In this document: piece by piece, positions 49 to 61,921 of the stretch
Numbering within the stretch: the first letter of the stretch is position 1
How the letters are laid out: each line of letters opens with the position of its first letter
DNA from: Planctomycetales bacterium
GTDB lineage: Bacteria > Planctomycetota > Planctomycetia > Planctomycetales > Planctomycetaceae
Assembly (NCBI GenBank): GCA_040877365.1
Contig: JBBDNU010000153.1
Coordinates: forward strand, 5,049-69,048
Direction: 5' to 3'
DNA length: 64,000 nucleotides
Program-made: the position numbers and the translations under genes
Notes under the pieces: generated by a model
What the model was told of the DNA's origin: nothing
Database searches by the model: none
What the model saw: the letters and a program-made list of their open reading frames with translations, nothing else

Positions 49-2100
49 ATGACAGCCACATCCGAACGGATGGCGCGCCGGGCGACTCGCCGTGTCTCCT
101 TGAACCGCACGAGGCGTCTCATGCCCGCCCCTTGGACGAGTTGGGCCGATTCCGGTTGGCAGTCGAAGTCGGAGACGCTGTCGCTGGCGGTGCCGGTCGG
201 ACTGGCGATCCTCGACGGCCTTTCCGAGTGTCGCAGTGCCGCGACGCTATTGAAAGGTCGTCTCCCCGAGATTGCCGCCGAGTTCGGAGCCCAATGGGCG
301 GCCGTCGTCGAGCGGTCGCCCGATTGGACCGTCCTCGCGCAAGCCGGGCGGCAGGGGATCGGAGACCTTCCGACATGGTTCCTCGAGGAGGCGCTCGACC
401 GCGACGCGGCGGGTCTGACGAAGCTCGCCGCGCCGGACGGCTGGTCGCTCGTCGCCGCTCCCTTTCCCGGGAGGACGTCCCCGCCGCGGCTGCTCGCGCT
501 CGCGGGACGCGGCATGACCGTCGAAGCCGTCCCCGCCGCGCTGGTCGTGGCCCGCGTACTGGCGCGCGGCATGGAGGTGTGCGCGGACCGCGAGCGGAAC
601 GATCGGCGGCTCGACCGCTTCAAGGGGACGCTGGCGATCGCCGCCTCGATCGCCGGCGTCCACGAGACGCAGCCGCTGCTCGAGCGGATCGCCGAGGAGG
701 CGACGCGGCTGCTCGATTGCGACCGGGCGAGCATCTTCATCCGCGACAAGAGGCGTGGGCAGCTCGTGGCCTGTCCCGCCCTCGGGGTCGCGGGGAACAC
801 GCTTCGCCTGCCGGACGACGCAGGCATCGTGGGGAACGTGATCCGTTCCGGCCAGACGGTCCGCGTCGACGCCGCCTACCAGGACCCGCGGTTCAACCCG
901 GCGGTGGACAAGCAAAGCGGCTACACGACCCGGAACCTGCTCTGCGTGGCGCTGCGGAACGGCAACGGCGAAATCATCGGCGCCTTCGAGGTGATCAACC
1001 GGCACGCCGGGCCGTTCCGCGAAGAGGACGAAGAGACGCTCGAGCTGCTCGCGGGGCAGGCGGCGATCGCGATCCAGAACACGCGCGAGCGCGAGCAGCT
1101 CGTCCGCAGCCGCGAGCAGTTGGCCGAGCAGGTGACGCGCGGCGTGCGGATCATCGGCGAAAGCCCGGCGATCGTCGCCTTGCGGAAGACGATCGAGCGG
1201 CTGGCCGGGACCGATCTGCCGGTGCTCGTGCTGGGGGAGAGCGGCACGGGAAAGGAAGTCGTCAGCCAGGCGCTGCACTATCAGGGAGCGCGGGCCGAAC
1301 ACCCCTTCATCGCCGTGAACTGCGCCGCGATTCCGGAAACGCTCCTGGAAAGCGAGCTGTTCGGTCACGAGAAGGGGGCCTTCACCGACGCCCGCGAGAT
1401 GCGGCCGGGCAAGTTCGAGTTGGCGGAAGGGGGGACGCTGTTCCTCGACGAGATCGGCGACATGAGCCTCGGCGGGCAGGCGAAGCTGCTGCGGGTGCTC
1501 GAGCAGAAGGTCATCACCCGCGTCGGCGGGTCGCAGGCGATCCCGATCGACGTCCGCGTGATCGCCGCGACGAACTCGGTCCTGTCGGACCGGGTCCGTG
1601 AGAAGCAGTTCCGCGAGGACCTGTTCTACCGGCTGAGCGTGGTCACGCTCGATCTGCCGCCGTTGCGGAAGCGGCCGCAGGACATCCTGCCGCTGGCGGA
1701 ACATTTCCTGGCGCAGTTTTCGACGCAGGCCAACCGTCCGCCGCTGGAGATTTCGGACGAGGCGCGGCGGCGGCTCTTGGCGCACGAGTGGCCGGGGAAC
1801 GTCCGCGAGCTGCGGAACCTGATGGAGCGGATCGCGTTCCTCGCGCCGGGGGAGCGGGTCGAGGCGGACGACCTGGCGTTCATCCTCAGTCCGGCGGCGC
1901 CGTCGCCGTTCGAGCCGTCGCTCGACCTCGGGCTGATGGAAGCGACCCAGCGGTTCCAGACGGAGTTCATCCGCCGCGCCGTGCAGCGGGTGGGTGGGAA
2001 CATGAGCGAGGCCGCCCGCCTGATGGGCCTGCACCGCTCGAACCTGTACCGCAAGCTGCGGCAGCTGGGAATGCCCGCGCCGGAGGAGGCGCGGGAGTGA
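49..2100 (+). CDS. sigma-54-dependent transcriptional activator (unknown N-terminal sensor region + GAF + AAA+ + Fis-type HTH)
   Basis: 683-aa ORF with Walker A GESGTGKE, ELFGHEKGAFTDA loop, Walker B LFLDEIGD, WPGNVRELRN and a C-terminal HTH GGNMSEAARLMGLHRSNLYRKL. The true start may be an internal Met. Confidence 0.9.
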   Translation: MTATSERMARRATRRVSLNRTRRLMPAPWTSWADSGWQSKSETLSLAVPVGLAILDGLSECRSAATLLKGRLPEIAAEFGAQWAAVVERSPDWTVLAQAGRQGIGDLPTWFLEEALDRDAAGLTKLAAPDGWSLVAAPFPGRTSPPRLLALAGRGMTVEAVPAALVVARVLARGMEVCADRERNDRRLDRFKGTLAIAASIAGVHETQPLLERIAEEATRLLDCDRASIFIRDKRRGQLVACPALGVAGNTLRLPDDAGIVGNVIRSGQTVRVDAAYQDPRFNPAVDKQSGYTTRNLLCVALRNGNGEIIGAFEVINRHAGPFREEDEETLELLAGQAAIAIQNTREREQLVRSREQLAEQVTRGVRIIGESPAIVALRKTIERLAGTDLPVLVLGESGTGKEVVSQALHYQGARAEHPFIAVNCAAIPETLLESELFGHEKGAFTDAREMRPGKFELAEGGTLFLDEIGDMSLGGQAKLLRVLEQKVITRVGGSQAIPIDVRVIAATNSVLSDRVREKQFREDLFYRLSVVTLDLPPLRKRPQDILPLAEHFLAQFSTQANRPPLEISDEARRRLLAHEWPGNVRELRNLMERIAFLAPGERVEADDLAFILSPAAPSPFEPSLDLGLMEATQRFQTEFIRRAVQRVGGNMSEAARLMGLHRSNLYRKLRQLGMPAPEEARE

Positions 2101-2236
2101 GCGATCACGGAGTCTGTTCGAACTCAGACCCGGAGGGCATGACGCGCACTGACGCCCGTCATTCGCGTGAGGGCGGGGAATCGGACTTGCCGTGCCAGCG
2201 GAAGTCTTGCGACTTCCGCTACCGCTTCGCACCCTT

Positions 2237-3421
2237 CTACTCCGGCTTCTCCCCCCCTCGCGCCGGCCGCGCCGCGAAGTACAGCAACTGCAACAGCAGG
2301 AACAGGAACACCGGCAGGAAGACGAGCGCACGCAGGACGTTCTTCACCAGCGGCGGGAACCGGAAGCCCGCGTCGACGACCGCCAGCAGGATCACGCCGA
2401 CCAGCGTGAGGAACAGCACCCCACACCCCATCGCCGTCATCTGCGTCTTGAACACCGTCTGTTCGGAGTGCGTGCCTGAATAGAGGTCGATCGTCCGCCG
2501 CCGGCGGAGCGAGTCGCGTGCGGCGTCGACGGTTTCGCCGGCGCGGATCAGGTCTTCCCAGATGGCGTCGGTCGTCTCCCGCGGGCGGAGGCCGCGGAAG
2601 GCAGCCAACACTTGCGCCGCGTGTCCGACCTCCGAGAGCGGGCCCGCCGGTTGCAGCTCGCCCTGGATCGTCAGCCGCGCGGCGGGCGCGGCGGCGGATT
2701 TTTCCAGGACCGCCGCGCCGGCATCGCCGGCGATGGTCAGTCTCCAACCGGGCGCGGCGGCGACGGGTCGGATGGTCCACGTGGCTTCCGGCGCGCCCTT
2801 CCCGGCGAGCGTGACGAGCGCCCGCAGGCATCCCTCGGCGGTCTCGCCGGTGCGGAGGGCCGTGACCTGCGAGTAATGTCCGGCGAGAAACCGCAGCAGG
2901 TCGGCGTCGTTCACGAGCGCCCCGTCGATCTCCTCGACCGAGAGCCGGGGAGGATCCTGCCGGGTCGAGATCACGAGCCGCTCCATCTCGAGCGCTCGCG
3001 GCGGCCCGATCCGCCCCTCCGCGAGCGCCTCGCGCAATCGCCGCACGCCCGCGTCTTCTCGATGGGGAAAATACGGCATGAGGACCGCCCGCGCGTCCGC
3101 CTGCTGCAGCGCGAGCTCGTACATCCACGACGTGTCCTGCGCGGGGTGTGGCACGACGAGCAGTGGCCTTCCCGCGGCAAACAGGTGCTTGGCCGCCGTC
3201 CGCGTCGCGTCATCGCCGCCGGCGACGATCACCGCGTCGACCGCGCCGGGCGCGAGCAGATCGGCCCAGTCGTCGAGCCGCCGCACTCCCGGCGCCGCTT
3301 CGAACACGGCGGCCGGCAGCGACTCGCCGTACGCGCTCGCGAGGCGGCAGGCGGTGTCCGCGGCGATCGCCTGGAGGAGAGGGAGCGCCGCGGGCTGATG
3401 ACCGAGCAGGGCGAAATTCAT
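2237..3421 (-). CDS. Gfo/Idh/MocA-like (Rossmann-type) domain protein with C-terminal transmembrane anchor
   Basis: This is the last 394 aa of the 1180-aa ORF, starting at MNFALLGHQ. The N-terminal pattern (...VDAVIVAGG...AAKHLFAAGRPLLVVPHP) resembles the oxidoreductase N-domain but lacks a clean GxGxxG. Two hydrophobic helices sit at the C-terminus (GVLFLTLVGVILLAVV, LVFLPVFLFLLLQLLYF). The rest of the long ORF is antisense to the plus-strand genes at 3680-5599. Confidence 0.55.
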   Translation of the reverse strand: MNFALLGHQPAALPLLQAIAADTACRLASAYGESLPAAVFEAAPGVRRLDDWADLLAPGAVDAVIVAGGDDATRTAAKHLFAAGRPLLVVPHPAQDTSWMYELALQQADARAVLMPYFPHREDAGVRRLREALAEGRIGPPRALEMERLVISTRQDPPRLSVEEIDGALVNDADLLRFLAGHYSQVTALRTGETAEGCLRALVTLAGKGAPEATWTIRPVAAAPGWRLTIAGDAGAAVLEKSAAAPAARLTIQGELQPAGPLSEVGHAAQVLAAFRGLRPRETTDAIWEDLIRAGETVDAARDSLRRRRTIDLYSGTHSEQTVFKTQMTAMGCGVLFLTLVGVILLAVVDAGFRFPPLVKNVLRALVFLPVFLFLLLQLLYFAARPARGGEKPE

Positions 3422-3679
3422 GGGAATCGCGCGGCATTCTTTCCCGAAGGGACGCGAGGATGTCGCATCGCGACAAGGACTGTCGTAGCGAATCGGGCGC
3501 GCCTGCTCAAGCGTCGTCGGAGACCCTCGAGAAGTCTGCTGGTCGATCCGGCCGTTGAAATCGTCGCCGGCGGCGGCGTAGACTGAACGCGCGCCTCGAA
3601 ACAGCGCCCCGAATCGCTCTTGCGGGCCGGCGGCAAAACCGCTATCAACCCGCCTCTCTCTCGAACCCTTCCTTTCCCC

Positions 3680-4129
3680 ATGTCGTTTCGTCCCGGAGCG
3701 CAGGGATACCCGCTCGATCGGCGGGGCCGGATCGCGCTGCTCGTGTGGAGCCTGTGCCTCGTCGCCGGATTCGGCGTGGCCTGGTCCATCGATCCCGACC
3801 CCCGCGGGTTCGGGACGCACGAGCGGCTCGGCCTGCCTCCCTGCTCGTTCCAGACGATGTTCGCCATTCCCTGTCCGAGTTGCGGCATGACCACCAGTTT
3901 CTCGAATTTCGTGCGCGGCCGGTTCGTCGCCGCCTGCGAGGCGAACCTGGCGGGCTTCCTGCTCGCGGCGGCCTGCGCGATCCAGGTGCCGTGGGCGTGG
4001 TGGAGCGTGCGCCGCGGTCGGCTGTGGCAGGTCTCGCGGCCCGATCGGGCGGTGTTGTGGCTGCTGACGGTGGTGTGCGCGGTCGCCCTCTTGCAATGGC
4101 TGGTCCGACTGATGGCGGGTAACGAGTAA
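3680..4129 (+). CDS. DUF2752-like small membrane protein
   Basis: Start taken at the internal Met MSFRPG. It has the motif CSFQTMFAIPCPSCGMTTS (C-x-x-C/CPxCG type) followed by hydrophobic helices. The family name is my recollection only. Confidence 0.6.
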   Translation: MSFRPGAQGYPLDRRGRIALLVWSLCLVAGFGVAWSIDPDPRGFGTHERLGLPPCSFQTMFAIPCPSCGMTTSFSNFVRGRFVAACEANLAGFLLAAACAIQVPWAWWSVRRGRLWQVSRPDRAVLWLLTVVCAVALLQWLVRLMAGNE

Positions 4130-4195
4130 CGAGTTGCGAGTAACGAGTAACGAGTAACGAGCGATTCTCGTCACTCGCAACGCGTCACTCGTCAC
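4119..4195. repeat. heptamer array: 6 x GTAACGA-type units, then 7-nt spacer, then 4 inverted GTGACGA-type units
   Basis: Read directly: GTAACGA GTAACGA GTTGCGA GTAACGA GTAACGA GTAACGA gcgattc TCGTCAC TCGCAAC GCGTCAC TCGTCAC. It overlaps the stop codon (4127-4129) of the preceding gene. Confidence 0.85.
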
Positions 4196-4210
4196 TTCCT
4201 GGAGCGTGTC

Positions 4211-4882
4211 ATGGATGACCGCAGGCGACGATTCGCGGCCGGGCTGCTGGCCATATGCCTCCTGGCCGCCTCGCAGACGGGCTGCGCCCTGTTCGTGATG
4301 GCCGGCAAGATGTTCTTCGGCGATCCCGTCATGCCCTCGGCCTTCGAGAAGCGGACGAAGGTGAACCTCGCCAAGTCGGGCAAGAAGGTGCTCGTGATCT
4401 GCACCACGCCCCAGATCGTCAAGTCCGAGCTTCCCGCCGTCGACCACGACCTGATGGACGGCGTCTCCCGCCGGTTGCGGTGGCACGGCATCTCCGTCGT
4501 CGACCGCGATCAAGTGAGATCCTGGCTCGACGACAACGGCGGCGACTGGGGACCGCCCGAAGAGATCGCCAACCGCTGCGACGCGGACTACATCGTCCAC
4601 ATCGACCTCGAAAGCTTCGCCTTCCAGGACCGCAACAGCCCCGGTCTGATGCAGGGCCGGGTGACCGGCGTCGTGCGGGCCTACGAAGTCGAGACGATCG
4701 ACGGCGGCAAGGTCGCCACCGAAGTCTTCGAAGAGGCGATCCAGTCGACCTATCCGCAGCACAACCCGGTGTCGCAGGACCAGATATCGCCGCGGGCGTT
4801 CCAGCAGAAGTTCATGGACCGCCTCACGACGCAACTGGGGCAGATGCTGCACTCCTACCAGTACAGCGAAACCATCGAGTAA
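4211..4882 (+). CDS. lipoprotein, unknown function (paralogue of 4898-5599)
   Basis: Signal peptide with lipobox LAASQTGC. Clear similarity to the next ORF (V.V.C..P...RL..H.I.V....VR.WLD...DW..PEEI....Y....D...F). Confidence 0.75.
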   Translation: MDDRRRRFAAGLLAICLLAASQTGCALFVMAGKMFFGDPVMPSAFEKRTKVNLAKSGKKVLVICTTPQIVKSELPAVDHDLMDGVSRRLRWHGISVVDRDQVRSWLDDNGGDWGPPEEIANRCDADYIVHIDLESFAFQDRNSPGLMQGRVTGVVRAYEVETIDGGKVATEVFEEAIQSTYPQHNPVSQDQISPRAFQQKFMDRLTTQLGQMLHSYQYSETIE

Positions 4883-4897
4883 GGGGAAGGACCCGTC

Positions 4898-5599
4898 ATG
4901 GACCGCCAGACATCGAATCGGGACGACATCCGCACGGGCCGCCGCAGCTTTCTCCGCGGGACGCTCGCCGCCGCGCTGCTCCCGCTGGCCGCCGGCTGCC
5001 AGTACGTCGTGCTCGGGGGTTATCTCCTCGGCGGACGGCCGTCCTACGAGCCCCGCTTCGACGCCGAGACGAAGCGGTCGATGACCGACAAGGACGTCAC
5101 CGTCGCGGTCGTCTGCTACTTGCCCAAGGAGCACAAGTGGGATTTCCCCGGCATCGACGACGAAATCACGAAGCACGTCTGCCATCGGCTGAAGGACCAC
5201 CAGATCCAGGTGATCCGGCCCGAACACGTCCGCGCCTGGCTCGACGAGCACCCCGACTGGGACCGCCCGGAGGAGATCGGCGAAGCGTTCGGCGCGACGT
5301 ACGTGATCTATCTCGACGTGCTCGACTTCAGCCTGTACGAAGCCGGCCGCTCGAACCTCTACCGCGGGCGGTCCGAGGTCGCCGTGAAGGTGACCGCGAT
5401 GGACCCGCGCCACAAGGGGGAAGGAGAGGAAATTTACACCGCGAACCTCATCTCGAAGTATCCGCTGGAAATTCCCCGCGACACGCACGACGTGACCTAC
5501 GAGCGGTTCAAGCTCGAATACCTCGCCCGGCTGAGCGAAGAGATCGGCCGCAACTTCTATGAGCACTACGCCGGCGACGACATGTCGGACGCGACCTGA
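4898..5599 (+). CDS. lipoprotein, unknown function (paralogue of 4211-4882), Tat-like signal
   Basis: N-terminus has RRSFLRG followed by lipobox LAAGC. It is homologous to the preceding ORF over the central 100 aa. Confidence 0.75.
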   Translation: MDRQTSNRDDIRTGRRSFLRGTLAAALLPLAAGCQYVVLGGYLLGGRPSYEPRFDAETKRSMTDKDVTVAVVCYLPKEHKWDFPGIDDEITKHVCHRLKDHQIQVIRPEHVRAWLDEHPDWDRPEEIGEAFGATYVIYLDVLDFSLYEAGRSNLYRGRSEVAVKVTAMDPRHKGEGEEIYTANLISKYPLEIPRDTHDVTYERFKLEYLARLSEEIGRNFYEHYAGDDMSDAT

Positions 5600-5606
5600 G
5601 CTGGGA

Positions 5607-5634
5607 GTGACGAGTCGCGAGTGACGAGTGACGA
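5607..5634. repeat. heptamer array GTGACGA GTCGCGA GTGACGA GTGACGA
   Basis: Same 7-nt unit family as 4119-4195. It begins 8 nt after the stop codon of the second lipoprotein gene. Confidence 0.8.
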
Positions 5635-5768
5635 GCCGGCGGCGGTCCATCTTGCCGTGCGACTCGGGAGGCGGGCAGGATCGCCTCCCGGTTTGACCGA
5701 TGGATCGAGGTGCCGCATCGAAGGATCCGGCTTGCGTCCGCGGCACCAGACACCTAGACTCATTCGTG

Positions 5769-6158
5769 ATGGTTCGCACGTTTCACATTCTGCTGCTCGT
5801 CGCGGCGGTCGCCACGTGCCCGTTCCGGTGCCTCGCTCAGCCAAGGGCCGCAGGCGCGGAGGCAGGCAGTCCGCGAGGCTGCGCGTGCTGCCCTCACGAG
5901 CGGGAACAATCGCCGGCGACGCCGCAACCAGTCGATGACTGCGGTTGCCCCGATTGTCTCTGCCGCGGCGCGATCGTGGAGGAGGCGGCCGGCCTGCTGG
6001 ATGCCCGTCAGGACGTCCCGGATTTCACGTTCGTCCCGGTGCAGGTTGCCGGCGATCTCCACTGGCCGGCCCGTCGCGTCGAGGCGTCGCCGTCGCCGTT
6101 GTTCCTCATGAGTTCCGGTTGGCTGGTTCGCGTGGCGATCCAGTCGTTCCTGCTCTGA
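5769..6158 (+). CDS. small cysteine-rich protein with N-terminal hydrophobic signal-like segment
   Basis: Start taken at the internal Met MVRTFHILLLVAAVATCPFRC. Contains the cysteine clusters CACCPH and CGCPDCLCRG. No family recognised, and coding status is not certain. Confidence 0.45.
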   Translation: MVRTFHILLLVAAVATCPFRCLAQPRAAGAEAGSPRGCACCPHEREQSPATPQPVDDCGCPDCLCRGAIVEEAAGLLDARQDVPDFTFVPVQVAGDLHWPARRVEASPSPLFLMSSGWLVRVAIQSFLL

Positions 6159-51412: not shown

Positions 51413-52930
51413 ATGACCCGCTTCCTGCTGGCGGCCGCCCTTGCCGTGCCGCTCCTCTCGGCCGCTCCCGCTTTCGCCGAAGTCCAAGGCGCGTGGGTGG
51501 CCACCGACCGCACCGTCGATTGTTCGAGCTATGACACGATCCGCCGCGACCTGCTCAAGCCCGACATGACCGACGAGCAGAAGGCGCTCGCCCTGTACGA
51601 CTTCTTCCGGCAGCGGGTCTATCACTACAAGAACCTGCCGGAGACCCGCGAGCCGCTCAAGACCGTGAACATTATCGGCAACACGCTGTGCGGCTCGCAG
51701 GCGACCTGCATGAAGGGCCTGTTGCAGGAGGTCGCGGGCTTGAAGACCCGCGTCGTCTCGCACCCCGGCCACACTTTCTACGAGGTGTACTACGACGGGA
51801 AGTGGCACGGGTTCGACACGATGACCAACTTTTACGTGTTCACCCGCGGCGAAGGCAAGGACCGCTACGTCGCCTCCTTCGCCGAACTGAACAAGGACCC
51901 GTCGCTCATCAAGGAGGCCGTCAAGGAAGGCCGTTCCGTGACCGCCCTTTGCCCCTGCGGCGACGACCCGCTCGCCTTCGCGGACAAAATCCAGATCACC
52001 GACTACGAGCCGGAGCGCAGCGACTGGTCCATCAAGGACTATTCCCTGCGGCAGGGCGAGGAGTTGGTGCGAAGCTGGTGGCCTCACGGCAAGCCGCTCC
52101 CCGGCAGTTTCGACGGCGGCCGCCCCGGACCGGTGCACACCTGCGGCACGCGCGACCGGCAGGCGGAGCCGGAACTGTTCCAGTTCTGGGAGCCGTACGG
52201 CATCCCGAAGTTCGCCCCCTCGACGAGCGTGAGCTATCGCCACTACGCGAACGGCTGGATCGCCTATTCTCCCGATTTGACCAACGCGCACGCCGTGAGC
52301 GACGGCGGGGCGAAGCTGGAGGGCGTGCAGGCGACGAAAAACGGCCTTGCCGGCCAGGGGACGTGGGAATATCGGGTCAAGTCGCCGTATCACATCACGA
52401 GTGCCGAGCTGAGCCTCGACGTGGACCTGGCGAGCGCCGATAGCGCTGTGACCGTGGAAGTCACGGACGCCCGCGGGCAGTGGCAGCCGGTCCCGCTCGA
52501 AGGCCTGGCCAAGGTGCAGACCCTCTCGCTGGACAAGCACGTCGTCCGCGCCAATCGCGGGCGGTACGAATACGGCGTGCGAATCCGGCTCGAGGGACAC
52601 CACACGGCCCTCCGCCGTCAGCACCTCAAGACGTGGTTCCAGCACAACGCGATGGCCGCCCCGCACCTGATGCCGGGCAAGAACCGCGTCACCGTCGAAG
52701 TCGCCGAGGAAGCTGGGCTGAAGGCCGCACCGCTCACGGTCGTCTACCGCTACAAGGACGCCCCGAAGTGGGATGGGGCGGTGAAGTCCGTCGAGCAGAC
52801 CGTGACCAAGAACGGCCAATCGTTCGACGTCGCGCTCCCCGAGACCGACAAGCTCCCCCAGATGCAGGACCTGACGATCCGCTACGGTGCGCTCGCCTGG
52901 CGGCCCGAGCCGGTCAAGCAGGGCGAATGA
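51413..52930 (+). CDS. secreted transglutaminase-like (Cys-His-Asp) domain protein
   Basis: Signal peptide. Core NTLCGSQATC...HPGHTFYEVYYDGKWHGFD with candidate triad residues. Confidence 0.8.
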   Translation: MTRFLLAAALAVPLLSAAPAFAEVQGAWVATDRTVDCSSYDTIRRDLLKPDMTDEQKALALYDFFRQRVYHYKNLPETREPLKTVNIIGNTLCGSQATCMKGLLQEVAGLKTRVVSHPGHTFYEVYYDGKWHGFDTMTNFYVFTRGEGKDRYVASFAELNKDPSLIKEAVKEGRSVTALCPCGDDPLAFADKIQITDYEPERSDWSIKDYSLRQGEELVRSWWPHGKPLPGSFDGGRPGPVHTCGTRDRQAEPELFQFWEPYGIPKFAPSTSVSYRHYANGWIAYSPDLTNAHAVSDGGAKLEGVQATKNGLAGQGTWEYRVKSPYHITSAELSLDVDLASADSAVTVEVTDARGQWQPVPLEGLAKVQTLSLDKHVVRANRGRYEYGVRIRLEGHHTALRRQHLKTWFQHNAMAAPHLMPGKNRVTVEVAEEAGLKAAPLTVVYRYKDAPKWDGAVKSVEQTVTKNGQSFDVALPETDKLPQMQDLTIRYGALAWRPEPVKQGE

Positions 52931-52933: not shown

Positions 52934-53185
52934 ATGTCTCGACAATTGACGTTGGATCTACCGGAGGAAGTCGATCGGGCCTTGCGCGCCGAAGCCGCGC
53001 GGAGGGGGAAGTCGCCCGCGCAGGTTGCGATCGAGTGGATCGAATCGCGCGTCGCGGCTCCACGGCGCGGGAGCGCGGAAGCCCTGATGGCATCCCACGG
53101 GACGTGGTCGATGACGCCACAGGAGCGGATCATGATCGAGCGAATGATCGAGGAAGAGCGGCTGCTGGAAGATGACGAGCAGTGA
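52934..53185 (+). CDS. RHH-type antitoxin (VapB-like)
   Basis: 83 aa. LTLDLPEEVDRALRAEAARRGKSPAQVAIEWIE is a ribbon-helix-helix pattern. It overlaps the vapC start by 4 nt (GTGA). Confidence 0.75.
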   Translation: MSRQLTLDLPEEVDRALRAEAARRGKSPAQVAIEWIESRVAAPRRGSAEALMASHGTWSMTPQERIMIERMIEEERLLEDDEQ

Positions 53186-53583
53186 CCTTCTTGCTCGATA
53201 CGAATCACGTCATCGCGCATCTGAACGGCGATCCGCGAATGGCGAACCACGTCGTCTTACATCGAGCGACGGGAGACGTCTTCGCGATCAATACCACGGT
53301 GCTGGGAGAGTTGTATTTCGGTGCGTACGCGAGTCGGCGGCCCACCGAAAACCTCGGCGGCGTCAATTCCTTTCTTGACGAGGTGGATCTCTTCGAATTC
53401 GATCGCGCCGCAGCGGAGGAGTTTGGGAGGATCAAGGCCGAGCAGCGGGCCAAAGGAAGGCCGATACCGACTGCGGACGCTCAAATCGCCGCGGTGGCCC
53501 GATTGCGCGGCCTGACAGTGCTTACGAATGACGCTCATTTTCAATCGGTCCATGCGTTGAAGACTGACAACTGGCTGGCATGA
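53182..53583 (+). CDS. vapC: PIN-domain toxin VapC
   Basis: 133 aa with FLLDTNHVI, GELYFGA, DAQIAAVA and LTNDAHF, which include the acidic PIN residues. GTG start. Confidence 0.9.
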   Translation: MTFLLDTNHVIAHLNGDPRMANHVVLHRATGDVFAINTTVLGELYFGAYASRRPTENLGGVNSFLDEVDLFEFDRAAAEEFGRIKAEQRAKGRPIPTADAQIAAVARLRGLTVLTNDAHFQSVHALKTDNWLA

Positions 53584-53610: not shown

Positions 53611-55167
53611 ATGATGGGCAAGCCCACCGGGTTCAAGGAGTTCGCGCGGCAGCAGCCGGGTGAGCGCGATCCGCGATTGCGGGTTCTCGATTGGAACGAG
53701 TTCCACGAGCATCTGCCCGTGGAGGATCTCCGCGCGCAAGGGGCGCGGTGCATGGATTGCGGCGTGCCGTTCTGTCACACCGGCGATCTGATGGCCAACA
53801 TGGCCGCCGGCTGCCCGCTGCACAATCTGATCCCCGAGTGGAACGACCTCGTCTACCGCGACCGCTGGCGCGAGGCGCTCGACCGGCTGCATAAGACGAA
53901 TAATTTCCCCGAGTTCACCGGCCGCGTCTGCCCCGCTCCGTGCGAAGGCTCCTGCGTCCTGGGGATCATCGAGCCGCCGGTGGCGATCAAGACGATCGAA
54001 GCCGCCATCGCCGACCGCGGCTTCGAGGAAGGCTGGATCGCGCCGCAGCCGCCGGAGCGGCGCACGGGAAAGAAGGTCGCGGTCGTCGGCAGCGGGCCGG
54101 CGGGACTCGCCGCCGCGGCCCAGCTCAACGCGGCGGGGCATTTCGTCACCGTGTACGAGCGGTCGGACCGCATCGGCGGGTTGCTGATGTACGGGATCCC
54201 GAACATGAAGCTCGACAAGTCCCTCGTCCAAAGGCGGGTCGATCTGCTCGCCGGGGAGGGGGTCGAATTCATGACCAATTCGGCCATCGGCGCGGACCTG
54301 CCGGTGGAGCGGCTCCAGCGCGAGTTCGACGCGATCGTCCTGTGCACGGGGGCGACGCGGCCCCGCGACCTTCCGCTCCCCGGCCGCGACCTCGCCGGCG
54401 TGCGTTTCGCGATGGAGTTCCTCCACGCGAACACGAAGCGGCTCCTTGACGTAGGGTGGGCTGCGCCCACCAACGGCGAAAACGCTGGCGATGACGCTTC
54501 AGCGACCCGGACGCTCGAAGCGTCCGGGTCGCTTGGCCCGTTCATCTCCGCGAAGGACAAGGACGTGATCGTCATCGGCGGGGGCGATACCGGGACCGAC
54601 TGCCTCGGCACGTCGCTGCGGCACGGCTGCCGGAGCCTCGTCAATTTCGAGATCGTCCCCCGCCCGCCGGACGAGCGGGCCGCGAACAACCCGTGGCCGC
54701 AGTGGCCTCGCGTGTTCCGCGTCGATTACGGCCACGAGGAGGCGCGGGCGAAATTCGGCGACGACCCGCGCGAGTTCTGCGTCGAGACGCTCGAGTTCCT
54801 CGACGACGGCAGCGGCCGCGTGTGCGGCGTGAAGACCTGCGAGGTGGACTGGAACCGCGTGACCGAGGGCGGCCCTCCCTTCACCCGCCTGCCCGGGACC
54901 GAGCGGATCTGGCCGGCCGATCTCGTGCTCCTGGCGATGGGCTTCCTCGGCCCGGAGCCGGCCGTGGCGGAGCAACTCGGCCTCCAACTCGACCTGCGGA
55001 GCAACTACGCCGCGGAGTACGGTCGCTACGCGACGAACGTGCCGGGCGTGTTCGCGGCCGGGGACTGCCGCCGCGGCCAAAGCCTCGTCGTGTGGGCGAT
55101 CCACGAAGGCCGCGAAGCGGCCCGCGAGTGCGACCGTTATCTGATGGGCGCGACGCGGCTGCCCTGA
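53611..55167 (+). CDS. gltD: glutamate synthase small subunit (NADPH)
   Basis: [33 protein letters not shown] and [11 protein letters not shown]. It carries an in-frame palindromic insertion at 54451-54540. Confidence 0.95.
54451..54540. repeat. palindromic element inside the gltD CDS
   Basis: Hairpins GGTGGGC-tgc-GCCCACC (54455-54471) and GCGACCCGGACGCT-cga-AGCGTCCGGGTCGC (54502-54532, 14-bp perfect stem). It encodes [30 protein letters not shown]. Confidence 0.8.
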
Positions 55168-55188: not shown

Positions 55189-55390
55189 TAATACCCGCCG
55201 CCCGCGTCATGTTCGTTCACGCGCCGAGCGGGTCGTTCGCATGGGGTTATGGGCAATTCGGAAGTTCTGGGCAAATGGCCCAACCAGTTGCTCGGAAAAT
55301 CGCTGGCTCCGCAAGAATTTTGTTTGCGATGCCGCAGCTGGATACGGTACAGTATGCGGGTTCGATGATCCCTCCACTTGGAGCGGCGTC

Positions 55391-56791
55391 ATGGCTGAAC
55401 AAGTTCCTTCGCTGGCCGAGTTCATCGGGCTGCCGACCTCCGAGGTCGAGCAATACGATATCGCCTTGCTGAATCTGTGTGCCGCTCGCGGGCTGCCGGG
55501 AACCGAGAATCTCGACATTCCCGAGTTGCTCGACCGGCTCGATGAGTGGGCGCAGCGGGTGCGGATCGAAATCTGCCGCCACCTCTACCGCTTCGATCCG
55601 TTCGCCGCTCGAGAGCCGACCGAATACTCGTGCGGCAATTCGCTGGGGCGGTTCTTCTGCTGGTACACGCTCCAGGTGCTGCAGGAGGACTGCGGCGTCG
55701 CCTATCATCCCGACCGCAAGTTCAAGCCGGACTTCTGCAAGCCCGAGGACGTGTTCATCCACGGGATCGTGTCGCCAGATGGTCAGGGCGGGACGTGCGC
55801 GTCGATGCCGGTGGTGTACGTTGCGGTCGGCCGCAGGCTCGGACTGCCGGTCCACCTCGCGGCGACGCGCGGGCATCTCTACTTTCGCTGGGACGACCCG
55901 CGCGGCACCACGATCCAATGGCGGCTGCCCGATCTCGATCTCTGGATCGCGCCCGACCGGTTCAACATCGAAGGCTCCGGCGAAGGGATCGCCTTCCATC
56001 CCGACTCGCACTACATCCAGTGGCCGGAACTGTGGACGAAGGAGGATTGCGAGTACGGCCGGTATCTCCGATCGCTTACGGCCAAGGAAGAACTCGCCTC
56101 CTTCCTGATGGAGCGGGGCGAGTGCTTCTGGGATCTCGGAAAGCGCGGCGAGGCGCTCAAGGCGTTCTACTACGCCTGCAAGCTCGTGCCGGACGACAAG
56201 CGTTACGAGCGACATCACGCCTTGCGGACGCGCGACTATGAAGAGCACGAACGGAAGTTCCACGAGCGCTTCCGGGAGCAGGAGCGGGAGCGGTTCGAGC
56301 GACAAGCGCGACGCCGCGCGCTGCCGGGCGTGTGGGGGCATTCGCCGAATTGCTGTTGCGGTCCGTGCGAGCATGCGCGAGACATCGCCGAGACGCGCCC
56401 GCAGCCGCCGCACGGGAGCGCGAGTTGCACCTGCTGGGAATGCACGAAGGCCCGCGCGGCGTTGTCGCGTCTCGCGCCGCCTCATGGAAAATGGTGTCTG
56501 TGTCCAGAGTGCCGGGAGGCGCGCGGGGAACTGGCGCCACCCGGCCCGCCGCATCCGGACTGCTGCACCTGCTGGAATTGCCAGGAGGCCCGAAAGGCGG
56601 CCGAACAACCGCCGAGCGTGCCGGGGCATCCCCCCAACTGCCGATGCGCCGGTTGCGCTGCGTATCGGGTCACGCATCAGCCCATGCATGCGCTGATGAG
56701 CGCCAAACCCTCGCGATCGCTGCCCGGCATCCGGTTCCCCCATCAAACGGCCATCGCCCATCCCGGAGTTCCCTCCCTGCCCGGATTCTGA
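55391..56791 (+). CDS. transglutaminase-fold (SirB1-like) protein with C-terminal 5 x H-x3-C-x-C-x2-C repeats
   Basis: Start taken at MAEQVPS. Core GGTCASMPVVYVAVGRRLGLPVHLAATRGHLYFRWDD, a helical TPR-like middle region, and five Cys/His repeats between aa 366 and 476 of the ORF. Confidence 0.7.
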   Translation: MAEQVPSLAEFIGLPTSEVEQYDIALLNLCAARGLPGTENLDIPELLDRLDEWAQRVRIEICRHLYRFDPFAAREPTEYSCGNSLGRFFCWYTLQVLQEDCGVAYHPDRKFKPDFCKPEDVFIHGIVSPDGQGGTCASMPVVYVAVGRRLGLPVHLAATRGHLYFRWDDPRGTTIQWRLPDLDLWIAPDRFNIEGSGEGIAFHPDSHYIQWPELWTKEDCEYGRYLRSLTAKEELASFLMERGECFWDLGKRGEALKAFYYACKLVPDDKRYERHHALRTRDYEEHERKFHERFREQERERFERQARRRALPGVWGHSPNCCCGPCEHARDIAETRPQPPHGSASCTCWECTKARAALSRLAPPHGKWCLCPECREARGELAPPGPPHPDCCTCWNCQEARKAAEQPPSVPGHPPNCRCAGCAAYRVTHQPMHALMSAKPSRSLPGIRFPHQTAIAHPGVPSLPGF

Positions 56792-56808
56792 GAGGAAGGA
56801 GAATCGCT

Positions 56809-57669
56809 ATGTACATGCCCACACTCGCCCGGTTCACCGCCCGCGACCCGATGCCGCCCGGCGGTTTGGACGTTTTGCCAGGAAGCGCTGCGCTCTATCG
56901 ATACGCCCGAAACTCGCCGGTCGGTCGAGTCGATCCGAGCGGCATGCAGTGCATGAGCTCGGACAGCAAGGTATTCATCGATCCGGTAAGAAATCCTGGT
57001 GATCCGCCAACGGCGCGATTCCCCATGAGCACCGTCGATGCGAAGATCGAGGTGTTGGCGAACCACTGCGACCCAGACATTACGCCGCACTACTCTGTCT
57101 CGGTTGAGATCGACTCGGCCGTTTTGGTCGCGGGGCAAGCGTTCACTTGCGCTCCAACAACGCGCGCAGGATTGACGCACCGAATCATCTTGGCAATGCG
57201 AGCGAGGTTGGGCGAAGGTGCTGGCCTCAGGCCGACGCAATTCATCGGCGAAGAGATCGCTTGTCAACAGCCGACACTTGAGTTCAAGGCGAGCCAACGT
57301 GGCAACGTATTCCCTGGCTTAGGTCCCTGTGCCGCGATGAAGATCGAGTTCAAATGCAATATTCCCTGTCGTTTGCACGGCAGCTCGCAACTCTGCGAGC
57401 GCCCGGACGGCCAGGCGGTCGTGTCATTTCGGGGTCAGGATTTGCGGCCAGGAGGAGCGGATCGTCCGCTTATCGATTACACCGGTCCGGGTCAGCAAAT
57501 CAGGATTCGATGGTCAGTCAACACGCGCGGGACGAGTGCGTGCTGCAGCTTTGAATCGTGTACTCCGACGATTCAGCTTGAACAGTTTCCGTCCGGTTTT
57601 CCTGTCAATCCTCCCGGGCCGCCGGTGCCTCCACCACTCCCTCAAGGGGCAGCCGGCGCTAGCTCTTGA
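56809..57669 (+). CDS. stand-alone Rhs-core C-terminal tail + unknown Cys-rich C-terminal domain (orphan polymorphic-toxin cassette)
   Basis: GGAAGGAGAA RBS. The N-terminus YMPTLARFTARDPMPPGG...ALYRYARNSPVGRVDPSGM matches the conserved end of RHS repeat-associated cores (..RF.s.DP....NlYrYv.NnPv...DPsG). About 240 aa of novel sequence with 12 Cys follow. Confidence 0.7.
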   Translation: MYMPTLARFTARDPMPPGGLDVLPGSAALYRYARNSPVGRVDPSGMQCMSSDSKVFIDPVRNPGDPPTARFPMSTVDAKIEVLANHCDPDITPHYSVSVEIDSAVLVAGQAFTCAPTTRAGLTHRIILAMRARLGEGAGLRPTQFIGEEIACQQPTLEFKASQRGNVFPGLGPCAAMKIEFKCNIPCRLHGSSQLCERPDGQAVVSFRGQDLRPGGADRPLIDYTGPGQQIRIRWSVNTRGTSACCSFESCTPTIQLEQFPSGFPVNPPGPPVPPPLPQGAAGASS

Positions 57670-57731
57670 ATCGTGATCTCGTTTTGAGTGAAAGTGGACG
57701 CTTGCGGTCGACGGCAAGAGGAAATCGATCA

Positions 57732-59081
57732 ATGTCTGCAATCGAAGCTGGCGTGTTGGTGCGTATTCTGGTCCTTCCGGCGGTCCTCTGCTGCCTCGGA
57801 ACACGATCGGCTCGCTCCGCTGAGACCGCGGATGCAGTCATCGAGGCCTTGGACCGCGCTCGAAGCGCCGCGCTGAAAACTGAAGAATACGAGTCCGCCA
57901 TCGATGGCCCACGCCTGTTCGCCGACATCGCCATCGCAGCGATGCGAGTCGGAAACCCGGATCTGGCCGAACGCGCATGGAAGGACGGACTCTCCCTTGA
58001 TCGTCGTGGCGGCGGGATCGCGGCCGCCGGTCTGATTGATATGGCCGCTCGCGCGATTGAATCGCGTCAATACGGGCTTGCGCGGCGTGCATTCGCCGCC
58101 GCACGGGAGTTGGAGCCGCTTGGACCACCCGAAGAGGATGAACGGATCCAGCGGATGGTGCGCGCGCACGATCGGTGGTTCGCAAGTGGCATCGCCGCGA
58201 TGTCCGATGAGCAGCAAGACCGGCTTGCGGCGGCATTGGACACGATTCGTAGGATCGAGGACGCCTCGACCCGAATCGGCTTCCTCCGCCGCGTTGGGCA
58301 GGAACGGCTGCTCCGAGACGATGTGACTGGCGCCATTTCCGTCGCGGATGGTCTCGACGTGAAGCGGCGCGAGCAACTGCTGTGCGATCTGGTGGCGGTC
58401 GCCGTGCGCCGTCACGAACTCGGCCAAGCGGACGTCATCGCATCGAAGATCAGCGAGTCGGAGTTTTCATTGGTGCGGGCGCACGCGATCCTCGGCGCGG
58501 CGCATCACGCTCGAGGGGAGATCAGCGAGGCCCACAAGCGTTTTCGACGAGCGCAGCGCGCCTTGGACGATATCGAACGCGACGAATCCGTGGAGACGAT
58601 CGAACGCGACACGACTCTCTTGGAGGCAATCGAAATTCTCGCGAACGAACTCGCTGCGTCGGCAAGGGTCGAGGATTCGCTGAAAAACGTGAGCCGCATT
58701 CGACGCCTTCAGAGTTTCGACGGCCGATTGGCCGCCGACCTTGTGACCTTCGGCGTATTGCAGACGTGCTGCGCGCGCGGCGATTTCGGTGCGGCAGAGC
58801 GTCTCGCGACTTCGATACGGCCTGGTCCGCACCGATACGAAGCGCTCGGATGGATCTCGAATGCGAAGGCTGCCCGGCGCATTCGAGACGGCAGCGGCGA
58901 GGCTCGTTTCAACGTGTCCGATATCATCGACGCCGGATATTCGATCAACGGGACAGTGGTCGCGGCAATGGCTCGTGCCGGACGAGCCGATCTGGGATTC
59001 CACTGGACAAACCAGAACGAATCGGCCCCGCAGCGGTGCGCCATGTATCTCGCAATCGCCAACGCACTTTCCGAGGGGTAG
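57732..59081 (+). CDS. secreted alpha-helical repeat protein (candidate immunity/partner)
   Basis: Signal-like MSAIEAGVLVRILVLPAVLCCLGTRSARSA with AGAGGA upstream. An alternative TTG start at 57666 overlaps the previous stop. The body is helical and TPR-like. Confidence 0.6.
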   Translation: MSAIEAGVLVRILVLPAVLCCLGTRSARSAETADAVIEALDRARSAALKTEEYESAIDGPRLFADIAIAAMRVGNPDLAERAWKDGLSLDRRGGGIAAAGLIDMAARAIESRQYGLARRAFAAARELEPLGPPEEDERIQRMVRAHDRWFASGIAAMSDEQQDRLAAALDTIRRIEDASTRIGFLRRVGQERLLRDDVTGAISVADGLDVKRREQLLCDLVAVAVRRHELGQADVIASKISESEFSLVRAHAILGAAHHARGEISEAHKRFRRAQRALDDIERDESVETIERDTTLLEAIEILANELAASARVEDSLKNVSRIRRLQSFDGRLAADLVTFGVLQTCCARGDFGAAERLATSIRPGPHRYEALGWISNAKAARRIRDGSGEARFNVSDIIDAGYSINGTVVAAMARAGRADLGFHWTNQNESAPQRCAMYLAIANALSEG

Positions 59082-59082
59082 G

Positions 59083-59328
59083 ATGCGCTTGTTGTTACTG
59101 ACTGTGCTCGCCGGTTATGTATGCTCCTTTGCGGCGCTGTCTCGGGACGCGATTCGGCGGGCCGAAGCCTCGAATACCGAAGGGTACTATTTCAGCGTGG
59201 CGAACGGTGTCGTAAACTGGAAGATCCATGCAACGCTTCGCGTCATCTATTCTCCGCTGATATTCGTGGACAGGTTCGCCGGGTCGGGCAAGAGTCCGGC
59301 ATCCATGCCGCTCGATCAATTGAACTGA
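59083..59328 (+). CDS. small protein with N-terminal hydrophobic helix
   Basis: 81 aa, MRLLLLTVLAGYVCSFAAL. The start is 2 nt after the previous stop. Lower GC than the surroundings. Confidence 0.45.
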   Translation: MRLLLLTVLAGYVCSFAALSRDAIRRAEASNTEGYYFSVANGVVNWKIHATLRVIYSPLIFVDRFAGSGKSPASMPLDQLN

Positions 59329-59349: not shown

Positions 59350-61335
59350 TCAAGGGCCGGACGACGCGACGGCCGGTTCCAGCAGTCCATCGTGGCGGCC
59401 GACTTGCAGGCGGACCATGTCGCGATACCGCCCGCCCGACTCCATCAGCTCCGCGTGCGTGCCGGTCTCGACGATGCGGCCCCCTTCGAGCACGAGGATC
59501 TGGTCGGCGTGGGCGATCGTGCTCAGACGGTGGGCGATGACGAAGCAGGTGCGGTCCCGCATCAGCCGGGCGAGGCTCTCTTGGATAAGCAGCTCGCTCT
59601 CGGTGTCGAGGTTGCTCGTCGCTTCGTCGAGGACCAGGATCCGCGGGTCGGCGAGCACCGCCCGCGCGATCGCGATCCGCTGCCGTTGCCCGCCGCTCAG
59701 CTTCACCCCCCGTTCGCCGATGACCGTGTCGTATCCGTGCGGCAGGCGGCGGATGAACTCGTCGGCATTGGCGACCTCGGCGGCGCGGCGGATCGCGTCG
59801 TCGCTCGCGGCGCGGTCGGCGTAGCCGATGTTTTCGGCGACGGTCCCGTCGAACAGGAACACGTCCTGCTCGACGAGTCCCAACAGACCGCGGTAGTTCT
59901 CGACCTCGATCTCGCGGAGGTCGATCCCGTCGAGCAGGACGCGCCCCGCGGTCGGATCGTAGAAGCGGGCGACCAGGTTGCACAGCGTCGTTTTTCCGGC
60001 GCCGCTGGGACCGACGAGCGCGACGACGCGGCCGGGGGCGGCATCGAGCGAGACTTCTTGCAGCGCGATCTCTCGTCCGCCGGGATACTGGAAGCTCACG
60101 TCCTCGAACGCGATGCGGCCGGTCACGTCCCGCTTGCGGAGGGCCCGCGCGTCGGGCGGGGCGGGCATCTCGCGCGGTTCGACGAGCACCTCCATCACGC
60201 GGTCCAGGGCCGAAAGGCTGTTCTGGAACTGGGCGGCGCTCTCGGCGAGCACGGCGAGCGGCTGCAGGAGCATCAGCAGATAGACGAGGAACATCATCAG
60301 ATCCCCCAGCGTGAGGTTCCCCTCGAGCACTTGCCAGCCGCCGTAGAGCAGCACCCCCGCGCTGGCCAGCGGGATGATCGCCTCCCACACCAGCTCGATG
60401 CCGCGGCCCCACCACCAGACGAGCAGCTCCTGCCGACCCATCAGGTGGTTCTCGCGCATGTACCGCGAGGTCTCGTTCCGCTGGCGGCTGAAGGCGCGGA
60501 CGACGCGCATTCCGCCGAACGATTCGGTCGCCTGGGCGTCGACCCTCTCCCGGCGGTCGCGGACCTCGCGGTACTGCGGACGGATGCGGTTGATCCAGGT
60601 GCGGTGCGTGAAGTAGACGACCGGCAACAGCACGAGCGCGCCGAGGAGCAGCCGCCAGTCCACCCACGCCAGCACGCACAGGCTGCCGACGAGCTGCACG
60701 ACCGCCTGCCACGGGTTGTAGAGCATGCCGAACACGAGGTCGCCGACGCTCCCCGCGTCCTGGCGGAGGATGCTGGCGACGCCGCCGGACTTCATCTCGT
60801 GGACCTTGTGCAGCGGGAGGCGGACGGAGTGCTCGAACAGCCGCTTGCGGACCGCGAGCTGAATCCGCTTGGTCGCCTGCGTGGCGTGCCAGCGGCCCCA
60901 GACGTGGATTCCCAGCCGCACGAACGACACGGCGATCACCGTCCCGACGATCGCCAGGAGCAGTTCGAAGCGATCGCTTGGTAGCGGGACGACGCGGGTG
61001 AGCGCCTCGGGGAGTGGGGCGTTCCCCAGCACGTAATCGACGACGAACTTGGTGGCCGCCGGCGGGAGGAGCGCCAGCGCCGTGGCGATCGTCAGCGCGA
61101 CGAGCGCGAAGACGATCCGTCCCCGCTGCCCGCGGGCTTGTTCGAAAAACGCGACGACCAGTTCCCCGGCGGAGCGCATCCGCGGCCCGCGCTGCCCCGG
61201 CGCGCGAGAGACCGGCGGCTTTTCGCCGTTGACTCGCTCCGAACGCCCGTCAACGCCCGTCTTGCGCCATCGCTGACGAAGCCTGGAACGGTATTCTCGA
61301 AAGCGTTGGCGGCTGGAAAGCGGCAGGCGGGGCAT
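59350..61335 (-). CDS. ABC exporter, fused permease/ATPase (MsbA-like)
   Basis: 6-TM N-terminal domain, Walker A GPSGAGKTT, signature LSGGQRQR and Walker B ILVLDEATS. The start is uncertain because of an Arg-rich N-terminal extension. Confidence 0.9.
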   Translation of the reverse strand: MPRLPLSSRQRFREYRSRLRQRWRKTGVDGRSERVNGEKPPVSRAPGQRGPRMRSAGELVVAFFEQARGQRGRIVFALVALTIATALALLPPAATKFVVDYVLGNAPLPEALTRVVPLPSDRFELLLAIVGTVIAVSFVRLGIHVWGRWHATQATKRIQLAVRKRLFEHSVRLPLHKVHEMKSGGVASILRQDAGSVGDLVFGMLYNPWQAVVQLVGSLCVLAWVDWRLLLGALVLLPVVYFTHRTWINRIRPQYREVRDRRERVDAQATESFGGMRVVRAFSRQRNETSRYMRENHLMGRQELLVWWWGRGIELVWEAIIPLASAGVLLYGGWQVLEGNLTLGDLMMFLVYLLMLLQPLAVLAESAAQFQNSLSALDRVMEVLVEPREMPAPPDARALRKRDVTGRIAFEDVSFQYPGGREIALQEVSLDAAPGRVVALVGPSGAGKTTLCNLVARFYDPTAGRVLLDGIDLREIEVENYRGLLGLVEQDVFLFDGTVAENIGYADRAASDDAIRRAAEVANADEFIRRLPHGYDTVIGERGVKLSGGQRQRIAIARAVLADPRILVLDEATSNLDTESELLIQESLARLMRDRTCFVIAHRLSTIAHADQILVLEGGRIVETGTHAELMESGGRYRDMVRLQVGRHDGLLEPAVASSGP

Positions 61336-61497
61336 GGAGGGGCAGGGCTGGCGACTGGGAAGCAGCGGGCCGATACTCCATAATCTTCGGTGGCCACCAT
61401 CGCCCGGTCAACCCGTCGGTCGGCGGGCGGACACAATCTATCCCGCTGCCGTGCACGAATCGAAGATGCTTACGTCGTATGGCGACATGAATCCGAG

Positions 61498-61742
61498 GTG
61501 GAAGCATTGCCGTCCGTCTATCTCGAAACGACGATCCCAAGCTATCTCGTCGCGCGTCGAAGCCGCGACTTGATCGTCGCGGCTCACCAGCAGATCACAC
61601 AGTGACTTGGAATTGCAGGCACATCGCAAACGGACAAGTGATTCGGCGGCTGAGCATGGTCAATGCAGAGATCGAACGGCCGACTCCCGTGATCGTGACT
61701 CCCGAGGAACTCTTGGCGGAATTTCCTGGAGATGTCGAATGA
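61498..61742 (+). pseudogene. decayed PIN-like (VapC-family) gene: N-terminal and C-terminal remnants in different frames
   Basis: Frame A reads VEALPSVYLETTIPSYLVARRSRDLIVAAHQQITQ then a stop. Frame B, starting 2 nt earlier, reads TWNCRHIANGQVIRRLSMVNAEIERPTPVIVTPEELLAEF. These look like the two ends of a family of about 135 aa, so the middle is missing. Confidence 0.6.
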
Positions 61743-61921
61743 AGGAAGATCCAATCGTCGCGGAAGTCCGCGAGGCCCGTCGACGAATCTTCGAAGCATG
61801 CGGATCGGATCTGGACCGGCTCATCGCACATCTCAAGGACGCGGAGTCGAAGCACAAGGAACGTCTCGTGACGATCGAAGACGTCCAACGACGCAGGCAA
61901 GCGGGCCAGGCCGCGCTTTGA
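61739..61921 (+). CDS. small conserved-looking protein coupled to the PIN remnant
   Basis: 60 aa, MKEDPIVAEVREARRRIFEACGSDLDRLIAHLKDAE. The ATGA overlaps the stop of the remnant's C-terminal frame. Confidence 0.5.
   Translation: MKEDPIVAEVREARRRIFEACGSDLDRLIAHLKDAESKHKERLVTIEDVQRRRQAGQAAL

Follow-up and report, generated by a model that had tools for sequence, protein, structure and literature searches.

A transglutaminase-like gene and a repeat-less Rhs-tail gene as a probable two-gene polymorphic toxin module of Planctomycetota

Rhs toxins are viewed as cages that enclose a payload, with the conserved tail acting as the protease plug of the cage. In RhsA the catalytic aspartates are D1324 and D1346 and the chain is cut four residues past the second of them (PMC8765631), and in Rhs1 the cleavage site is preceded by two Asp-Pro motifs (PMC8636562). 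Polymorphic toxins in which an N-terminal inactive transglutaminase domain is followed by RHS repeats (Zhang et al. 2012, PMC3482391) are the closest precedent for the locus described here. This locus was analysed within a stretch of 64,000 nucleotides (nt) from a Planctomycetales bacterium (assembly GCA_040877365.1, contig JBBDNU010000153.1, positions 5,049 to 69,048 of the forward strand), called the window below, and comprises gene 1, which encodes a transglutaminase-like protein, open reading frame (ORF) A, which begins with a piece of the Rhs core termed the stub, and two further genes behind ORF A (Table 1). ORF A is likely to be the toxin gene of a two-gene, repeat-less and cage-less Rhs-derived polymorphic toxin module that is widespread in Planctomycetota, and its product is a probable small toxin in which the last 45 residues of a Rhs toxin have been kept; both statements are drawn from sequence comparison. 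The best supported division of the module assigns gene 1 and the first ~45 residues of ORF A to a constant part, and everything after DPSG, that is, the toxin domain together with the downstream genes, to a variable part.

Table 1. Features of the module in the window (position 1 is the first nucleotide of the 64,000-nt stretch)
Feature	Coordinates	Strand	Remarks
Gene 1, conserved partner	55391..56791	+	Transglutaminase-like domain, TPR-like helical region, CxCxxC knuckles
Spacer between gene 1 and ORF A	56792..56808	+	17 nt, holds Shine-Dalgarno-like GGAAGGAGAA at 56794-56803
ORF A (gene 2, presumed toxin)	56809-57669	+	Ends with TGA
Rhs-tail stub, ORF A residues 1-46	56809..56946	+	TIGR03696 match; D13-P14, D42-P43-S-G45
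Variable C-terminal domain, presumed toxin	56947..57669	+	11 Cys, Pro-rich tail, TGA
449-aa protein, immunity candidate	57732..59081 (ATG 57732)	+	Hydrophobic signal-like N-terminus, helical repeats
81-aa protein, second immunity or accessory candidate	59083..59328	+	Single N-terminal hydrophobic helix

The start codon of ORF A is the ATG at 56809, downstream of the ribosome-binding site GGAAGGAGAA; the protein has the N-terminus MYMPTLARFTARDPMPPGGLDVLPGSAALYRYARNSPVGRVDPSGM and the translation runs MYMPTLARFTARDP...LYRYARNSPVGRVDPSGM, so that binding site, start and translation were found as written in an earlier note on this DNA, which had been made from the sequence alone. The note had also taken the first ~45 amino acids (aa) for the extreme end of an RHS core and had named TIGR03696 as the profile for checking this. 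When the comparison was run, residues 1-46 aligned to positions 37-76 of the 76 positions of the model (E 6.3e-7, 29.8 bits), which bore the assignment out; the score is below the curated cut-off of 32.5 bits, since the stub covers no more than half of the model, and the stub is regarded as homologous but truncated. A profile including the stub also matched solved Rhs, TcC and teneurin-like shells, at their C-terminal plug. Two further observations of the note held, namely that no YD/RHS repeats precede the stub and that the upstream sequence in the same frame (a stretch from a GTG at 56332) overlaps the previous gene (55241-56791), which is read in another frame: YD repeats were found neither in ORF A nor in the in-frame stretch upstream of it nor elsewhere in the 64-kb window, and the window contained neither an rhs gene nor a second stub, the stub DNA occurring in it just once. 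In the NCBI annotation ORF A starts at 56815, the third codon (284 aa). This deposited start is probably two codons short, because the ATG at 56809 has a counterpart in each of the 32 leaderless homologues compared, most of which also have an AGGAG-like site upstream.

Of the Rhs aspartyl autoprotease, the stub retains the two Asp-Pro motifs together with the DPxG junction, D13 and D42 corresponding to the two catalytic aspartates of the protease, and a cleavage site at approximately G45/M46 is predicted from this arrangement. D13-P14 and D42-P43-S-G45 were invariant or nearly so in sets of 36 and 90 homologues; the invariant residues of the stub are M1, Y2, P4, D13, P14, Y30, P37, D42, P43 and G45. 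Over the first 14 codons the proportion of synonymous differences (pS) was 0.76, near saturation, against 0.185 for non-synonymous differences (pN), and it is therefore the protein sequence of the stub that has been preserved, rather than a DNA homology arm. Metagenomes were scanned for L[AG]RFTARDP without the requirement of an initial Met, and 21 loci were returned. Five of these were M-start stubs (three behind gene 1 and two at contig ends), the other 16 were canonical (..YYLRAR[QMY]YDP..) and stood behind long YD-repeat ORFs or in classic short orphans, and hybrids between M-start stubs and canonical Rhs cores were found in none of the 21. The existence of two separate classes without hybrids indicates that the stub begins exactly where the canonical core reads RAR/xYDP, and that its relatives are tied to gene 1 and not to rhs.

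For analysis of the gene pairing, 80 species-genome loci were collected with the gene 1 protein as the sole query and scanned in six frames with a hidden Markov model of the stub; nine of them, which end within ~120 nt of gene 1, were left out, leaving 71 evaluable loci. In 70 of the 71 the stub ORF was the next ORF on the same strand after gene 1, the pairing in three loci (L050, L068 and L072) being based on weak stub matches (E ~1e-4). The earlier note had proposed, as one option, an independently expressed toxin, and its description of an Rhs-tail protein that stands alone, is translated on its own and ends in a domain that could not be assigned was upheld; its treatment of the upstream gene as unrelated was not, as the pairing makes gene 1 the conserved half of the unit. 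The sole exception was L040, where the stub gene is just upstream of gene 1 in an inverted order (866-5952: signal-bearing stub toxin, small membrane protein, anchored gene 1). The same locus has a 449-aa gene after gene 1 with a weak GspL_C match (E 2.8e-4), the only hint of a link to type II secretion.

When ORF A itself was used for the search, only five other proteins were obtained, all of 173-251 aa, with a start of the form MY[MVT]PTLARF...DPSGL and unrelated C-termini. The closest homologues are located 18 nt 3' of the gene 1 homologue in their contigs, and the spacer layout TGA-N-AAGGAG-N-ATG is kept in L001-L004. A read-through fusion of gene 1 and stub was considered and rejected: the two are in frame across the TGA in L001, L003 and L004, but in the window, with its 17-nt gap, they are not in the same frame, and elsewhere they overlap in other frames. 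The transglutaminase-like and Rhs parts are separate genes and occupy different frames in the window. All of the 90 stub proteins collected at E below 1e-6 matched TIGR03696, and the stop-to-stop ORFs that bear a stub had no YD repeats and did not exceed 475 codons, a length that is mostly due to overlap with gene 1 in another frame. Across 85 loci, YD repeats were not found next to any M-start stub, and neither conserved secretion genes nor any other conserved gene family was found within 6 kb; the large neighbour clusters in this 6-kb scan were alternate-frame shadows of gene 1.

A protein search with the stub profile returned only proteins of up to 117 aa and missed the relatives of 173-251 aa; it is length-biased and uninformative on full-length Rhs proteins. 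Many predicted proteins of 39-117 aa (P0131-P0183) contain little beyond the stub and may be genuine short peptides, remnants of decayed cassettes or incomplete gene calls. Stub ORFs of merely 88-89 aa were seen in L034 (7130-7393) and L037 (7031-7297). In L034 the ORF after the stub opens with LPGAHNG.QDA.RHC, a motif of the DUF6973 tail of protein P0004, and the sequence of this locus suggests a split or frameshifted toxin.

For gene 1 the NCBI start was used (55391, 466 aa), the longest ATG ORF beginning at 55241. The protein has five CxCxxC knuckles and a Pro-rich tail with an LPGF end, and lacks a signal peptide. Its family has at least 355 homologues, and all of those with a named source were from Planctomycetota-type metagenome-assembled genomes (MAGs); a search of plasmids gave no match to gene 1. 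Many homologues carry a precomputed PF13369 domain followed by a TPR-like region, and the protein from the window scored 15.4 bits against PF13369, below the gathering score of 23.5. Cys136, immediately ahead of a helix, and His162, which is part of a strand, were invariant in 113 gene 1 sequences, as were N192 and D205. An AlphaFold2 (AF2) model was obtained with a predicted local distance difference test score (pLDDT) of 86 and a predicted template modelling score of 0.72. Its comparison with the PDB by Foldseek gave nothing at E<0.1, the matches being short TPR pieces and a weak match to PNGase (E 0.39), which is a transglutaminase-fold protein, and a PDB sequence profile search with gene 1 returned TPR matches only.

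The stub proteins behave as a polymorphic toxin family would. Conservation among the 90 was confined to the stub columns, with a mean column identity of 8%, and a few of their C-termini matched Tlde1 (two proteins), SLT (one), phospholipase A2, DUF6973 and, weakly, Ntox24, with further matches to AMOP and galaxin-like repeats; among these are domains known to attack the cell envelope. The proteins are rich in Cys (median ~10 each), and about half to two thirds of the ORFs after the stub gene begin with a hydrophobic segment, as estimated crudely from the first start codon. Stub genes formed arrays of 2-5 in L071, L083, L077, L044, L018, L020 and L060, and some spare copies (in L019, L020 and L060) have a piece of the 3' part of gene 1 in front of them; the window holds a single cassette.

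Predicted locations of the two proteins were compared across the loci. In 41 loci a gene 1 without membrane anchor was combined with an M-start stub and in 12 loci (16-18 with slightly relaxed cut-offs) an anchored gene 1 was combined with a stub carrying a Sec signal; there were no clear exceptions, and this matched location supports a direct functional link between the gene 1 product and the toxin. The CxCxxC knuckles were confined to the unanchored class, with 2-5 in each protein of the clade of the window. The anchored form was found in Phycisphaerae, Pirellula-type and a few other MAGs, and the Sec signal of its toxin ends just before YY.P..GRF. It is also carried by two cultured Pirellulaceae with complete genomes, SH501 (L070, CP197422.1) and SH467 (L074, CP197412.1).

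The variable tail of ORF A is 241 aa long and contains 11 Cys, and its last 39 residues include 11 Pro; the length of ~240 aa and the Pro-rich end given earlier were thus right, and the Cys count of 12 was corrected to 11. No match to the tail was found in Pfam, NCBIfam, PADLOC or PDB sequences, in agreement with the earlier statement that it could not be assigned. A single-sequence AF2 model of ORF A (pLDDT 32) was too poor for a fold search. An exhaustive HMMER search of 1.84 billion representatives yielded only two relatives of the tail domain. One of them, P0128, is a further M-start stub protein; the other, P0127 (L086, 395-1540), is a short ORF with Pfam TEN_YD-shell in which ~130 aa of YD repeats and a canonical Rhs core precede the same tail domain, with stop codons upstream of the ORF, and it looks like a classic orphan Rhs-CT cassette. 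The occurrence of the domain behind YD repeats indicates that this payload has moved between real Rhs genes and the stub system. Eight Cys and several motifs, including C.IPC, QQ.R..W and C.FESC, are kept in the tail family, and the genes 3' of P0127 and P0128 begin with signal or lipoprotein-like peptides.

Behind ORF A the two genes that the earlier note had described as tightly packed were recovered at 57732-59081 and 59083-59328, the second beginning one base beyond the TAG of the first. Both products have hydrophobic, signal-like N-termini, in line with their proposed description as periplasm-facing. The 449-aa protein gave one weak TPR_2 match (E 1e-4) and the 81-aa protein no family match, and homologues of either were absent from the other loci compared; for the 449-aa protein this absence fits a partner specific to the toxin, without proving one. 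The G+C content of 56809-59328 was 0.612 against 0.673 for the window, with a standard deviation of 0.018 for windows of the same size, and this was the lowest-GC stretch of 2.5 kb, none of 615 same-size windows (100-nt steps) being as low. The lower-GC islet claimed earlier from hand counts of single lines (31/60 and 33/60, both exact) was hence recovered by the sliding-window check. G+C falls from the junction of stub and tail onward (stub 0.659, tail 0.589), and G+C at third codon positions was 0.65-0.70 for ORF A and the two downstream genes, 0.80 for gene 1 and 0.90 for the nearby genes at 53611-55167 and 51413-52930. These values support the placement of ORF A on a compositionally foreign islet.

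In the proposed module the variable cassette would be exchanged by recombination within the constant part. The stub would be bound by the gene 1 product, which might be a chaperone or adaptor or else an enzyme that processes it, and would be removed at DPSG, by itself or by the gene 1 product; the Cys-rich tail domain may then act in the envelope of the target cell, and the exported 449-aa and/or 81-aa proteins would protect the producer. A more far-reaching form of this proposal is put forward tentatively and is considered possible rather than likely: the cage-free Rhs plug tail of ~45 residues could be a portable leader or pre-toxin module that is recognised in trans by the gene 1 protein, the pair could represent a pathway, so far unrecognised, by which Planctomycetota and their relatives process toxins and export or present them, in a cytoplasmic version (knuckles but no signals) and a periplasmic version (anchor plus Sec signal), and the tail in the window could be a new envelope-acting toxin fold.

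The main interpretation of the earlier note was that of a classic orphan Rhs-CT/immunity cassette; on that reading the stub would merely supply DNA homology for recombination with a complete rhs gene located elsewhere in the genome, and the ORF would normally stay silent. That the stub is a genuine piece of Rhs core on a foreign islet agrees with this, as does P0127, whose orphan-like appearance and shared tail domain show that tails have moved between the systems. A silent homology arm is, however, difficult to reconcile with an ATG and a ribosome-binding site conserved over distant lineages and with near-saturated synonymous sites in codons whose residues are conserved; the stub is moreover linked to gene 1 and not to rhs in essentially all loci (70 of 71), YD repeats are missing from the window and from the surroundings of every M-start stub, and M-start stubs and canonical cores form separate classes without hybrids. 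The idea of a cassette awaiting recombination into a full-length rhs gene is consequently not supported and is judged very improbable. Closer to the two-gene toxin module, of which it is a variant, is a model in which the stub is a catalytically dead leader and gene 1 a Cys-His enzyme of papain-like or transglutaminase fold that cuts at DPSG, comparable to a double-glycine leader and its C39 peptidase. The invariance of Cys136 and His162 in the 113 sequences, unlike the inactive transglutaminase domains of RHS toxins, would be expected from such an enzyme, and the model also accommodates the single gene 1 that serves multi-stub toxin arrays and the fact that both proteins always share a compartment. 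Conservation of both Rhs catalytic Asp residues in the stub points instead to self-cleavage, a third triad residue of gene 1 could not be assigned and the fold search with gene 1 gave no match to a known peptidase; this model is judged rather unlikely.

Two further explanations dispense with an interbacterial weapon. The transglutaminase fold can cross-link proteins, and secreted Cys-rich surface or matrix proteins might be cross-linked or anchored by the transglutaminase-like enzyme, with the Rhs tail as recognition tag; most C-termini have no toxin annotation, and AMOP and galaxin-like repeats are domains of the adhesion or matrix type. This explanation is regarded as improbable in view of the hypervariable C-termini, cassette arrays and variable next gene, which are the hallmark of toxin-immunity loci, the Tlde1, SLT and phospholipase A2 domains among the C-termini, the tail domain shared with the YD-repeat protein P0127 and a stub in which no Gln or Lys is conserved as a cross-linking site. 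An intracellular toxin-antitoxin or abortive-infection module that acts within the producer would account for the lack of export signals in the gene 1 and ORF A proteins and would fit the nearby PIN/RHH pair, but it was considered extremely improbable given the signal-like N-termini of the downstream candidate partners, the 11 Cys of the tail, the export of both proteins in sister clades and the absence of a PADLOC match.

Several points weigh against the two-gene toxin module itself. Toxicity, immunity, cleavage and binding are inferred from sequence, and the candidate immunity role of the downstream genes is deduced only from their position and signal-like N-termini; the fragments 3' of P0127 and P0128 are too short to show homology with the 449-aa and 81-aa genes. 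Matches to known toxin families were limited to a few of the 90 C-termini, and the tail in the window is not among them. The location match may represent one ancient switch between two clades and not repeated co-variation. The plug of solved Rhs proteins comprises ~95 residues and sits inside the barrel (PMC8636562), against 45 residues in the stub. With no signal peptide on the gene 1 and ORF A proteins of the window and no conserved secretion gene within 6 kb in the 85 loci, a leaderless protein with 11 Cys and a presumed target in the envelope is left without a visible way out.

A pairing of gene 1 with a stub toxin was not found described in full-text searches of the literature, and the Planctomycetota pairing of a stub toxin with a transglutaminase-like gene seems to be undescribed so far. 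Here the Rhs tail stands alone under selection in hundreds of loci and is always paired with one other protein. If the pair is functional, the Rhs tail would have a role independent of the cage, gene 1 would represent a new helper family for toxin handling, and a phylum in which weapons used between bacteria have hardly been studied would hold a large store of toxin and immunity domains, most of them without annotation. As the module is carried by SH501 and SH467, the idea is directly testable.

Other features of the window were recorded alongside the module. Upstream on the plus strand, overlapping genes for a FitA-like ribbon-helix-helix antitoxin (52934-53185) and a PIN toxin (53182-53583), a pair of the VapBC type, coincide with a dip in G+C of 0.59-0.61, and the gene at 51413-52930 (+) encodes a 505-aa signal-peptide protein with a weak Transglut_core match (E 5.7e-4), which belongs to another family than gene 1 and lies 2.5 kb upstream. 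An ABC exporter at 59350-61335 (-) was considered as a part of the unit and rejected, being convergent and not conserved in the other loci. Between it and an enoyl-CoA hydratase gene, adjacent ORFs of 71 and 104 aa (61390-61921, +) lie in a patch of 0.58 G+C; they gave no Pfam match and may be another small mobile pair.

Compared with canonical Rhs/YD toxins (RhsA of P. protegens, Rhs1 of P. laumondii, TcC and WapA), the last ~45 residues before the toxin are homologous, with both Asp-Pro motifs and DPxG, and a hypervariable C-terminal payload is likewise followed by a variable gene, the payload domain of the window being found behind YD repeats as well. Unlike these toxins, the module lacks YD repeats, a beta-cocoon and an N-terminal plug, and it has neither PAAR nor any other delivery domain; only one half of the core model is covered, ORF A beginning at ..YYLRAR/xYDP, and a separate transglutaminase-like/TPR gene replaces the constant body. 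The module was not filed as a member of the Rhs family, because it lacks the repeats, nor was it filed as an orphan cassette. With the orphan Rhs-CT cassettes of E. coli, Salmonella, Dickeya and Serratia it shares a short core piece, a toxin domain and a downstream gene on an islet of distinct composition, and related loci hold spare cassettes behind the first; the copy in the window, by contrast, is the first one and looks expressed, with a conserved ATG and Shine-Dalgarno sequence, and the spare cassettes have as their homology arm the stub together with the 3' end of gene 1, and not an rhs gene. The transglutaminase-RHS fusions cited at the outset have the same order of parts (signal or anchor, transglutaminase, Rhs tail, toxin), which the anchored versions in sister clades reproduce, but here the parts are distributed over two proteins with no RHS repeats between them, and both Cys and His have been retained. 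In MafA-MafB of Neisseria and in LXG toxins with Lap helpers, a conserved helper gene precedes a toxin gene with variable C-terminus, immunity genes and spare cassettes; the likeness to the module is one of logic alone, as the protein families are unrelated. SirB1/YchA-type proteins (PF13369 Transglut_core2 plus TPR) resemble the gene 1 homologues with a precomputed PF13369 domain and a TPR-like region; the protein from the window itself falls below the Pfam cut-off. Peculiar to the gene 1 family are its CxCxxC knuckles, its Pro-rich tail and its strict association with a toxin gene.

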